Positions 28,312-40,641 of a DNA stretch of 64,000 nucleotides are shown here, one piece after another. The number at the start of each line of letters is the position of its first letter. Within the stretch, counting starts at the first letter, position 1. The notes beneath the pieces were generated by a model, which saw only the letters and a program-made list of their open reading frames with translations, was not told the origin of the DNA and made no database searches. The stretch is taken from sequence record PZ179883.1; one strand, given 5' to 3'. Position numbers and translations under genes: made by a program. The DNA is from a phage.

Positions 28312-28760
28312 TCAACAATCACAATTTCTAATTTAGAGGAATATGTATCTAAAATCCCCTCAATAATATCCCAGTTCCCTTTACCTATGCCTGCACCAAT
28401 CCTAGGCATATAGATTGTAGGTTTAATCAGTTTATTTTCACCAAACTCATTTAATTCTAACATACAATTCATTAAAGCGGAATACTCAAAATTTGGCCCT
28501 GGTTGAAATTGAGTATAAAGGTTGAAGCAATACGCTTTATGAGTCCTAAAGTATTTTTCATAGACTGAGTAAGAACCGAGTTTAGTTACATCACCCCATT
28601 CAGTCTGTAATTTATCAGCTTCCAAAATTTTAGGGAAAGCTTTGGTTAATTGACCCGCTACGCCTGAACCCATAGTATGAAAACAATTGCATCCATGCGC
28701 AATATTTTTACCTTCAGCGAAAAGGGCGACAATATCGCCCTTGATATATTTTACAATCAT
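28293..28760 (-). CDS. macro-domain-like protein (155 aa)
   Basis: GDIV...IAHGCNC...MGSGVAG resembles the macro domain GDIT/VNAAN/GGGV phosphate-binding loops. Confidence 0.5.
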   Translation of the reverse strand: MIVKYIKGDIVALFAEGKNIAHGCNCFHTMGSGVAGQLTKAFPKILEADKLQTEWGDVTKLGSYSVYEKYFRTHKAYCFNLYTQFQPGPNFEYSALMNCMLELNEFGENKLIKPTIYMPRIGAGIGKGNWDIIEGILDTYSSKLEIVIVDWEPLL

Positions 28761-29104
28761 CTAGTACTCAATCCTCGATTATAAGAATCTACCAAACGGT
28801 CAACCATTGAATGACAAGCGGCTTTATCTTTCTCCTCCGCAACTGAACATTCTAAGGTATTCCACTTTTTAGCATATCGTTTTAATAATGTATCGTTTTT
28901 GTATCTGCTTGATTTATCTCTTTCTCCGTCTTTATATGCATATATTAATTTCTGCGCAAATTCAGCTTGGCATGCTTTATTTTTCCCACAATAATCTGCC
29001 GCAGTGCGATTTACATATTCTCTAATTTCAGTATATGATGTATCTGCTGACGCAGAAGCAGAAAATGAAATTAATCCTATACATAAAACCAAAATTTTAG
29101 TCAT
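28757..29104 (-). CDS. secreted cysteine-containing small protein (115 aa)
   Basis: Signal peptide MTKILVLCIGLISFSASASA; size and position match T4 vs, unverified. Confidence 0.45.
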   Translation of the reverse strand: MTKILVLCIGLISFSASASADTSYTEIREYVNRTAADYCGKNKACQAEFAQKLIYAYKDGERDKSSRYKNDTLLKRYAKKWNTLECSVAEEKDKAACHSMVDRLVDSYNRGLSTR

Positions 29105-38291: not shown

Positions 38292-38342
38292 TAAGCCTTG
38301 CGGCAACCTTGTCGGGGTTCCACCTGCTAAGGCAAGTGTTTG

Positions 38343-38434
38343 TACGAAACGCCGGGATTCGAACCCGGTTATTAAGTAGTTGACGCTACTCAATATTTTT
38401 AAAAGGCCATATCTCGACCATATCCGAACGTTCC
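38343..38434 (-). ncRNA. tRNA-like small RNA candidate (perfect T-arm, 7 bp acceptor-like helix, non-canonical core)
   Basis: CCGGG-TTCGAAT-CCCGG T-arm at 38351-38367; 38344-38350 pairs with 38428-38434 (one G-U); no canonical anticodon arm; lies between CDS 38600-38950 and a terminator. Confidence 0.35.
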
Positions 38435-38599
38435 GTCAAAAACGCTACTCGGCTTACGGCAAAGATATTTCCTCGAATCGATAATTCGGTGCGCCGTTTC
38501 TGCTGTGATAGTAAAGAGCCAGAACACAGTAAAACTGTGGGAGGAAACTATACTCCAGGGAACATCAGTCCGACGACTTACCGGTAGCGACCCGGTTTC

Positions 38600-38950
38600 T
38601 TAATATTCTTTTAAAGAATCAATATATTCACGGCGTTTACGCCACAAATCAATTGCTTCATACGCGGATTCAGCATTTCGAATTAGCCGGCATTTATGTA
38701 AAGACTTATGATTTTGATATTGTGTAGATAACGGAATTGTATCTAAAAGGTCTTTACGATCAAAATATTCGTAACCATCTAAACCAAATGAACGATTTTT
38801 GAGAAATTGCCAATGACCATATTCGTTTTCGACATAAACATAATCTGCATGCTGATAAAGCAAATTAATTACACGTTCAGAAATAACAGTATCATTATGA
38901 TTAAAATAGAATGTTAAATCATGAACTACTAAATAAACATTACCTTTCAT
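38600..38950 (-). CDS. hypothetical protein (116 aa) embedded in tRNA/small RNA region
   Basis: ATG 38948-38950 with GAGGAAAA RBS, 17 nt downstream of tRNA-Arg. Confidence 0.55.
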   Translation of the reverse strand: MKGNVYLVVHDLTFYFNHNDTVISERVINLLYQHADYVYVENEYGHWQFLKNRSFGLDGYEYFDRKDLLDTIPLSTQYQNHKSLHKCRLIRNAESAYEAIDLWRKRREYIDSLKEY

Positions 38951-38966: not shown

Positions 38967-39042
38967 TGGTCGAGGCAGTAGGGATCGAACCTACGACCTA
39001 GGACTTAGAAGGTCCTTGCTCTTCCTTCTGAGCTATGCCCCG
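38967..39042 (-). tRNA. tRNA-Arg (anticodon TCT), CCA encoded
   Basis: Manual fold: 7 bp acceptor, T-loop TTCGATC, anticodon loop CTTCTAA. Confidence 0.85.
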
Positions 39043-39046
39043 TAAT

Positions 39047-39128
39047 TGGGGTGACCGATGGGAGTCGAACCCATGACTACGAGAATCACAATCACAATCT
39101 CGAGTTCTACCAACTGAACTACGGCCAC
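39047..39128 (-). tRNA. tRNA-His-like (GTG) with 13-nt anticodon loop; possible pseudo-tRNA
   Basis: Acceptor, D-arm, T-arm and discriminator C resemble tRNA-His; anticodon stem CGAGA/TCTCG encloses TTGTGATTGTGAT. Confidence 0.55.
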
Positions 39129-39242
39129 ATTAATACCTACTCCAACAATCAAGATGTCTTCACACGAAATTAAGAGAAGAGTGATCAGTTCAACCCCTAT
39201 AATCGCGTCAAGTAGATATTAATGTGACAGTTGTCACAAATT

Positions 39243-39317
39243 TGGCGGACGTGATAGGATTCGAACCTATAACCAATCGCTTAACAGGCGATCGCTCTGC
39301 CATTGAGCTACACATCC
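39243..39317 (-). tRNA. tRNA-Asn (anticodon GTT), CCA encoded
   Basis: Manual fold: acceptor GGATGTG/CACGTCC, anticodon loop CTGTTAA, T-loop TTCGAAT. Confidence 0.85.
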
Positions 39318-39321
39318 AAAT

Positions 39322-39408
39322 TGGTGGGGAGTGGTGGAGTCGAACCACCCGAGTCGCAATGACAATGGATTTACAGTCCACACCGCTACCTCTACGGGAT
39401 AACTCCCC
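39322..39408 (-). tRNA. tRNA-Tyr (anticodon GTA), long variable arm, CCA encoded
   Basis: Manual fold: anticodon loop CTGTAAA, T-arm GGTGG-TTCGACT-CCACC. Confidence 0.8.
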
Positions 39409-39417
39409 AAATTAATT

Positions 39418-39492
39418 TGGTGGCCCTGGGTGGAATTGAACCACCATCTGGCGATTATGAGTCGCTTGCTTGAACCTTCCAGCTACAGGGCC
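39418..39492 (-). tRNA. tRNA with CAT anticodon (Ile2-type as in T4, or Met)
   Basis: Manual fold: acceptor GGCCCTG/CAGGGCC, anticodon loop CTCATAA. Confidence 0.75.
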
Positions 39493-39493
39493 T

Positions 39494-39569
39494 TGGTGCT
39501 GATTGACGGAATCGAACCGCCGACCTTCTCATTACAAGTGAGTTGCTCTACCTACTGAGCTAAATCAGC
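39494..39569 (-). tRNA. tRNA-Thr (anticodon TGT), CCA encoded
   Basis: Manual fold: acceptor GCTGATT/AATCAGC, anticodon loop CTTGTAA. Confidence 0.85.
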
Positions 39570-39574
39570 AAAAC

Positions 39575-39664
39575 TGGCGGAGGCGATAGGATTTGAACCT
39601 ATGAGTCGCCGGAGCGACTGCCGGTTTTCAAGACCGGTGCATTAAACCACTCTGCCACGCCTCC
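39575..39664 (-). tRNA. tRNA-Ser (anticodon TGA), long variable arm, CCA encoded
   Basis: Manual fold: anticodon arm CCGGT-CTTGAAA-ACCGG, T-loop TTCAAAT. Confidence 0.85.
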
Positions 39665-39666
39665 AG

Positions 39667-39740
39667 TCTCCGTGGCAGGATTTGAACCTACGACATTCTG
39701 CTCCCAAAGCAGACGCTCTACCAAACTGAGCTACACGGAG
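39667..39740 (-). tRNA. tRNA-Pro (anticodon TGG), CCA not encoded
   Basis: Manual fold: acceptor CTCCGTG/CACGGAG, anticodon loop TTTGGGA. Confidence 0.85.
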
Positions 39741-39750
39741 TAAATTAAAT

Positions 39751-39824
<74 letters not shown>

Positions 39825-39829
39825 AAATT

Positions 39830-39916
39830 TGGTGCGAGAAGTGGGACTCGAACCCACAAGGAAATCATTCCGCAGCATTTTAAGTGCTGTGCCTTTACCA
39901 ATTTGACCATTCTCGC
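39830..39916 (-). tRNA. tRNA-Leu (anticodon TAA), long variable arm, CCA encoded
   Basis: Manual fold: acceptor GCGAGAA/TTCTCGC, anticodon loop CTTAAAA. Confidence 0.85.
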
Positions 39917-39922
39917 TCTATA

Positions 39923-40531
39923 TTATTTATTACGTGAAAAAGATTGTTCTATCAATTCTGGACACTTTCGTTCTATCCATTTTCTAGCTTTTTGTGGGCT
40001 TATACCTATTATTTTAGCAGCTTTACTAACCCATCCAAATTTAGAATAATCGATTTTAACTAATTCTTCGTAAATTTCATCAGTTAAAATCTTTTCATTA
40101 ATATTTACCAGTAAATGATATAATTTATTATCATTAGCAATTTTAATGAATCTTTTATAGTTTCCGCCTTTACTTAAACCTAATGAAGTAATTGCAGATG
40201 ATATAGTAGCCGAATTTAATAATGCGTTTAAAATTTCTTCATCACTAACATTATAACGCTTTTTATTATTTTTAATATTTTTACCAGCAAAAGTATCAGT
40301 TTGCGAATGGCAATTTGGACATAATAATCTTAAATTTGATTTAAGATGATTTTTGTTATTTCCATCAATATGGTCTAATTGCAGAACAATATGCTTATTT
40401 TGCCATTTTGAAATTTTACAAATTGCACACTCATATGGAAAAATATTTTCTTTTATTATTTTGTCTTTCAGCTTTCCTGTACTAAAATTTGGATGTTTTC
40501 CTTCAAAAATTTCAGCTAATTTAGTATCCAT
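39923..40531 (-). CDS. HNH homing endonuclease-like protein
   Basis: HNH motif LQLDHIDGNNKNH...LLCPNCHSQTD; 202 aa from ATG 40529-40531 (track start 40555 is TTG); stop abuts tRNA-Leu. Confidence 0.7.
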   Translation of the reverse strand: MDTKLAEIFEGKHPNFSTGKLKDKIIKENIFPYECAICKISKWQNKHIVLQLDHIDGNNKNHLKSNLRLLCPNCHSQTDTFAGKNIKNNKKRYNVSDEEILNALLNSATISSAITSLGLSKGGNYKRFIKIANDNKLYHLLVNINEKILTDEIYEELVKIDYSKFGWVSKAAKIIGISPQKARKWIERKCPELIEQSFSRNK

Positions 40532-40641
40532 AATATAATTCCCAATTATTAACAAAGGCTCTCTAACAAGAACCCTTGATGATAGAGGGTATTAATCAGT
40601 GCGATATGAGTTAATAATAACAAATAATTCTTAAAGCATAT

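Follow-up and report, generated by a model that had tools for sequence, protein, structure and literature searches.

The window analysed here, a stretch of 64,000 nt from sequence record PZ179883.1, belongs to a T4-like phage of the genus Tequatrovirus according to the taxonomy of related records, and shares 97.5% identity with phage DCP2 over 25 kb. It contains a cluster of ten tRNA genes on the minus strand (Table 1), for which the direction of transcription would be from tRNA-Leu to tRNA-Arg. Nine of these tRNAs have standard loops. The tenth, tRNA-His(GUG), bears an anticodon loop of 13 nt and is the subject of this analysis.

Table 1. Coordinates of the tRNA-His gene, its parts and the neighbouring or related features in the 64,000-nt window.
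Feature	Position	Strand	Evidence
tRNA-His(GUG) gene, mutant allele, 82 nt including encoded CCA	39047..39128	-	ARAGORN; Rfam RF00005, 56.6 bits; orthologues annotated tRNA-His
Anticodon stem, 5' strand CGAGA, RNA positions 27-31	39098..39102	-	cmscan alignment; sequence
Anticodon loop, 13 nt, UUGUGAUUGUGAU, RNA positions 32-44 (wild type UUGUGAU)	39085..39097	-	sequence; cmscan; alignment
Anticodon stem, 3' strand UCUCG, RNA positions 45-49	39080..39084	-	cmscan alignment; sequence
Discriminator C73 (39050) and encoded CCA (39047-39049)	39047..39050	-	sequence; cmscan; alignment
Position -1, U in the RNA (A on the plus strand); G-1 unencoded	39129..39129	-	two alignments
Perfect tandem repeat, period 6, 2.7 copies, 100% match (AATCAC on the plus strand, GATTGT on the RNA strand)	39084..39099		Tandem Repeats Finder
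Structured 114-nt leader, directly 5' of tRNA-His in the transcript; context, not part of the duplication	39129..39242	-	fold z-score; compensatory pairs; T2L comparison
Ten-tRNA cluster, in rising coordinate: Arg, His (82-nt allele), Asn, Tyr, Ile/Met(CAU), Thr, Ser, Pro, Gly, Leu	38967..39916	-	ARAGORN; Rfam
tRNA-Asn and tRNA-Tyr	39243..39408	-	
tRNA-Tyr	39322..39408	-	
tRNA-Leu(UAA)	39833..39916	-	
210-aa ORF abutting the Leu end of the cluster	39923..40555	-	
trna.2-like ORF	38600..38950	-	
rnaD homologue (species II)	38487..38603	-	
rnaC homologue (species I)	38341..38480	-	
115-aa ORF containing a GCAGAA GCAGAA duplication	28757..29104	-	
GCAGAA GCAGAA duplication (~29052)	~29046-29058		comparison with DCP2 and UTI-E4
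Site of the TAAATT duplication present in DCP2	17788		

The initial annotation had described this gene as tRNA-His-like with a discriminator C, and its loop as a 7-nt loop expanded to 13 nt by a duplicated hexamer inside a CGAGA/TCTCG stem; both descriptions were borne out, the first by annotated orthologues and the second by cmscan, Tandem Repeats Finder and the alignment with relatives. Written by segments, the RNA reads GUGGCCG UA GUUC AGUUGGUA GAAC U CGAGA UUGUGAUUGUGAU UCUCG UAGUC AUGGG UUCGACU CCCAU CGGUCAC C CCA. All 76 positions shared with annotated tRNA-His genes of Tequatroviruses are identical, and the acceptor, D and T arms, C73 and the CCA end are unaltered. ARAGORN located a tRNA at the full 82-nt interval on the minus strand and named it “tRNA-???,” without an anticodon. 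The Rfam model RF00005 (gathering score of 29 bits) matched positions 39050-39128 of the same strand over its full length (model positions 1-71), with a score 8.5 bits below that of the wild-type gene of phage KarlGJung (56.6 versus 65.1 bits). Since the CGAGA/UCUCG stem was retained in the cmscan alignment and eight loop residues stood where the consensus expects two, the loop comprises 13 nt. An alignment that moves the anticodon stem elsewhere and closes a 7-nt loop, which the initial annotation had named as a refuting result, was not obtained with the Rfam model. The allele departs from the canonical anticodon loop, which has seven nucleotides with U33, a purine at position 37 and a 3-nt anticodon: GUG occurs twice in the 13-nt loop, neither copy lying within a canonical 7-nt loop, whereas the wild-type orthologues carry GUG at positions 34-36.

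The orthologue in relatives is annotated as tRNA-His with the codon CAC, and the wild-type gene of T4-like phages (KarlGJung bas37_0247, UTI-E4, Aeh1) occupies the same locus, between tRNA-Arg and the leader with tRNA-Asn. The wild-type tRNA-His genes of Tequatrovirus share U-1, C73 and the encoded CCA with the window allele and differ from it in their 7-nt loop, the closest relatives being identical at the 76 shared positions. In an alignment of ten phages, such as the initial annotation had called for, KarlGJung, DCP2 and UTI-E4 agree with the window at every column except a single gap of six columns in the loop, and 7-nt loops were present in all aligned phages of the more distant T4-like groups. 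A sensitive BLAST search with the 82-nt gene as query covered 50,697 phage records, of which 590 contained a homologue, in every case in the 76-nt form; the best identity among these was 92.7% (76/82), and none reached 95%. Because the 76-nt form occurs in all relatives and the six nucleotides are the sole difference from the closest of them, the repeat is an insertion and not a chance feature of the sequence. The identity of the 82-nt gene to Escherichia coli hisR is 76.8%, gap included.

The search for the same allele was extended to large collections. The exact stem with the duplicated loop gave no matches in IMG/VR, in JGI metagenomes or among 185,579 species-representative (GTDB) genomes. 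When the stem was left free, the pattern GGTAGA-N8-TTGTGATTGTGAT had 1 + 5 = 6 matches, close to the roughly 4 estimated to occur by chance in the genome set, and none of them was a tRNA; a stricter tRNA-shaped pattern had no matches in the metagenomes. Among 5,426 complete E. coli genomes, all with a hisR of normal length, the insertion was absent, even though E. coli hisR bears the same GATTGTGATT as the phage gene. The duplicated allele was thus found in no other sequence among those searched. Searches of the literature for Tequatrovirus papers on this set of tRNAs yielded mitochondrial genome notes only.

The absence of an encoded G-1 alongside an encoded CCA, which had also been pointed out initially, was confirmed. 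All ten aligned tRNA-His genes of T4-like phages have T at position -1, C73 and an encoded CCA; therefore, the lack of G-1 is a trait of this family of genes and unconnected with the duplication. E. coli hisR, in comparison, has G at this position. G-1 and C73 are major determinants for E. coli HisRS (PMC9976931), and by these identity rules even the wild-type tRNA-His of the phages would be expected to make a poor substrate.

Upstream of the tRNA in the transcript lies the strongly structured 114-nt leader, which has a minimum free energy of -32.7 kcal/mol (z = -4.36; none of 200 shuffled sequences was as stable) and is closed by a stem of approximately 13-15 bp whose 3' strand ends at position -1 of the tRNA. 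T4-like phages of Klebsiella and Erwinia retain the leader along with tRNA-His, and five compensatory pairs, from three lineages only, occur in it. Since T2L lacks both the leader and tRNA-His, the two travel as a block. The leader had no match to an Rfam family. Its identification as rnaC or rnaD of T4 was ruled out, as the homologues of those genes map to 38341-38603. By eye, a simple hairpin is apparently kept at the leader position in more distant phages.

The sequence of the anticodon arm suggests how the insertion came about. The wild-type arm, CGA-GATTGT-GATT-CTCG, contains a direct repeat of 4 nt at a spacing of 6 nt (GATTgtGATT), so that the relatives have 1.7 copies of the 6-nt unit and the window has 2.7, a gain of one exact period. 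The six extra bases can be placed anywhere within the 39084-39099 tract, and BLAST puts them at 39084-39089. The gain of exactly one repeat period is the classical outcome of slipped-strand mispairing, and an insertion equal to one period of a pre-existing microrepeat therefore bears the signature of replication slippage. According to this scheme, slipped-strand mispairing during replication of the wild-type arm would have added one GATTGT, turning the 7-nt loop UUGUGAU into the 13-nt loop given in Table 1. The nearest haplotype, that of Shigella phage S2_01, differs from the window by seven substitutions and two indels over 2.36 kb; within the tRNA cluster of approximately 970 nt, the differences amount to one substitution, a TA indel and the 6-nt insertion. 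Judging by this comparison, the duplication is a recent event on a haplotype nearly identical to that of S2_01.

Further 6-nt duplications were observed elsewhere in these genomes. Compared with DCP2 and UTI-E4, the window has a second tandem hexamer duplication, GCAGAA GCAGAA, in frame within a 115-aa ORF, and in DCP2 the hexamer TAAATT is duplicated, likewise in frame. In this set of sequences, 6-base indels of the kind expected from slippage are a recurrent polymorphism.

The cloverleaf of the 82-nt allele has an energy of -22.2 kcal/mol, in comparison to -23.0 kcal/mol for the wild type, so the cost of the insertion is 0.8 kcal/mol, and in folding the anticodon arm still favours the 5-bp stem. 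The unconstrained minimum free energy structure of the whole tRNA is a non-cloverleaf rod for mutant and wild type alike and is hence uninformative. The only candidate for an alternative fold of the arm, with the loop GAUUGUG and additional G-U and U-A pairs after a UU bulge, was rejected because it is 1.3 kcal/mol worse than the hairpin with the 13-nt loop and lacks both U33 and a purine at position 37. No competitive arm fold restoring a proper 7-nt loop was found among the suboptimal structures. The 82-nt RNA would probably still be transcribed with the cluster, folded into a cloverleaf and processed at its ends along with its neighbours. The oversized loop, for its part, would be expected not to present G34-U35-G36 in the canonical U-turn geometry, and this misgeometry would leave the tRNA inactive or severely impaired in decoding, that is, a nascent pseudo-tRNA.

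Loop size is standard in nearly all tRNAs; the rare natural departures from it amount to one or two additional nucleotides, and among the mutant loops studied the largest comprise 9-10 nt (PMC5009743; PMC4238358). We infer that decoding is lost or severely impaired in the 82-nt allele, because a loop of 13 nt lies outside the sizes reported to decode, none above 10 nt being known to function. Some residual decoding could in principle persist: the seven bases at the 3' end of the loop again read UUGUGAU and, like their wild-type counterparts, may stack on the stem's 3' strand. The allele has the makings of a pseudogene, as it carries a lesion relative to functional orthologues that is conserved neither in the 590 phage records nor in the large collections, and its disabling effect is predicted from the loop size.

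Loss of this tRNA would be expected to do the phage little harm. The T4 genome matches only the part of the cluster from Thr to Leu; in T2L, tRNA-Arg lies directly next to tRNA-Asn without tRNA-His between them; and T6 has a different subset of tRNAs, also without tRNA-His. On this comparison of gene content, tRNA-His is optional in Tequatrovirus, being absent from T4, T2 and T6. The loss of decoding is probably tolerated, since the gene is among the optional accessories of the phage and tRNA-His is also supplied by the host. T4-like phages have from 0 to 24 tRNAs, and predicted pseudo-tRNAs are on record among them (PMC1524935).

Three readings had been put forward in the initial annotation: a recent slippage mutation producing a pseudo-tRNA, an assembly artefact and an unusual tRNA whose decoding is altered. 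Of these, the slippage reading has the strongest support, in view of the 6-nt insertion being the only difference from the closest relatives, of its length of one exact period and of the lack of any other occurrence. We consider it likely that a recent slippage mutation, seen in this isolate only, has given rise to a probably non-decoding pseudo-tRNA-His allele. An artefact would mean that the true gene has 76 nt and that the extra GATTGT was introduced by library amplification, base-calling or consensus polishing across the short repeat. Such an origin would fit a variant seen in one sequence only, against approximately 300 near-identical phage tRNA-His genes and the large collections, and located in a tandem repeat; short repeats of this kind are sites at which polymerases slip, as do some consensus callers. 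The remainder of the assembled sequence, however, speaks against it. The unpaired indels of 1-2 nt relative to DCP2 and UTI-E4 all fall outside ORFs, the other 6-nt indels relative to the same two phages preserve the reading frame, and ORFs of 60 aa or more account for 93% of the window. In no case does an ORF of a relative correspond to two separate ORFs of the window, and ORF length is kept in 81/83 and 79/85 cases for the two relatives compared. Low assembly quality found no support as an explanation, the indel census and the ORF integrity against two relatives having given no sign of errors. In addition, the clean gain of a 6-nt unit at a repeat of 1.7 copies is, to our knowledge, an atypical error for short-read or polished long-read assemblies. 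This indirect evidence from the assembly favours a real mutation, and we regard an artefact as unlikely.

The readings in which the enlarged loop has a function are, taken together, very improbable. The main one holds that the loop was selected, for instance as a decoy for an anticodon nuclease of the colicin E5 type, as a self-restoring substrate or as a tRNA with altered or frameshifting decoding, and we judge it highly improbable. Its appeal comes from several sides: hosts have anticodon nucleases, which phage tRNAs have been proposed to counter through changes in the anticodon loop (PMC10264068; PMC11555353); the tRNAs that the cluster has in excess of T4 include those for His, Asn and Tyr, three of the four targets of colicin E5, which cleaves the queuosine tRNAs with GUN anticodons (PMC10264068); the loop contains two identical UUGUGA units; and in yeast mitochondria a tRNA derived from tRNA-His acquired a new decoding role with an 8-nt loop (PMC3113583). 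If the allele were a selected counter-defence device that presents an anticodon nuclease of GUN/queuosine tRNA specificity with the UUGUGA site in two identical copies, it could act as a decoy that soaks up the nuclease, or double cleavage followed by repair with a T4-type polynucleotide kinase and RNA ligase could yield a normal 7-nt loop. The probability of this particular scenario is extremely low in our estimation. A selected innovation would be expected to spread or to recur, whereas the allele was encountered a single time and did not reappear in any of the lineages or collections searched; it lies one slippage event from the wild type on an almost identical haplotype; and its loop exceeds every size reported to decode (PMC5009743). 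For the last reason and for its single occurrence, the altered-decoding reading of the initial annotation is left unsupported. Furthermore, the loop of the wild-type phage tRNA-His is the same as that of E. coli hisR, and there is therefore no sign of loop-based evasion in the gene family. The 6 nt might also be imagined as a short intervening sequence excised from the transcript to leave a normal tRNA-His. The wild type would indeed be regained if one repeat unit, no matter which, were removed exactly; nothing further speaks in favour of this reading. The tRNA introns known from bacteria and phages are of the group I type and hundreds of nucleotides long, we know of no mechanism that excises 6 nt, the suboptimal folds contain neither a bulge-helix-bulge motif nor extra pairing, and none of the relatives has the variant. 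With no known mechanism or motif to rest on, a mini-intron was rejected as scarcely credible.

The slippage allele can be set beside several known systems. Three predicted tRNA pseudogenes in phage Aeh1 and one in 44RR (PMC1524935) are likewise damaged genes in variable phage tRNA clusters; by comparison, the lesion in the window is a single identifiable and very recent event in an otherwise perfect gene, which has not decayed. Frameshift-suppressor and engineered tRNAs (SufJ and SufB2 with loops of 8 nt, mutants with 9-10 nt; PMC4238358; PMC5009743) also carry insertions in the anticodon loop, some of them spontaneous. Their loops gain 1-3 nt and keep ribosomal function, whereas the loop in the window gains 6 nt and has no evident frameshift target; at 13 nt it lies beyond the loops of 8-10 nt with demonstrated decoding that characterize extended-anticodon tRNAs. 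The yeast mitochondrial tRNA-Thr(UAG) (PMC3113583) is similarly derived from tRNA-His, lacks G-1 and has an enlarged loop (8 nt). In contrast to the window allele, it is conserved within a clade, its anticodon has changed, a synthetase has co-evolved with it, and its loop is larger by one nucleotide only; the window allele occurs singly, retains two copies of GUG and lacks a partner enzyme.

Considered against these systems, the allele is a minor curiosity: it adds one more case to the damaged accessory tRNA genes known from phage clusters and does not represent a new biological system. It clearly illustrates that a microrepeat in an anticodon arm can yield a 6-nt slippage duplication, and it adds to the picture of T4-like phages freely gaining, losing and damaging accessory tRNA genes. 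It also calls for caution in annotation, because tRNA finders will give an undetermined tRNA at this locus. As a natural allele resembling a knock-out, it may be useful for testing the contribution of phage tRNA-His to fitness. A greater importance would attach to it only if it were selected, for example against an anticodon nuclease.

The content of the cluster varies among T4, T2L, T6 and the window phage. Relative to T4, the window adds tRNA-His, tRNA-Asn and tRNA-Tyr and is without the tRNA-Gln of that phage. The tRNA-Tyr gene narrowly exceeds the Rfam tRNA threshold, with 30.3 bits against 29, and its acceptor stem as modelled contains non-canonical pairs; on the tRNA-Sec model it reaches 35.4 bits, which is below the threshold of that model. 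Because KarlGJung gives the same tRNA score, the low value is a trait of the family and not a lesion. The tRNA-Leu(UAA) gene scores 59.3 bits, compared with 64.0 in KarlGJung, and therefore contains at least one substitution relative to it. For the 210-aa ORF at the Leu end, the annotation of the counterpart is putative homing endonuclease in KarlGJung, and HNH or SegB-like in other records. A query including this ORF was covered to at least 80% in only 38 of the 971 matching records. The presence of a mobile endonuclease beside the cluster may help to explain its variable tRNA content. [quoted passage not shown]
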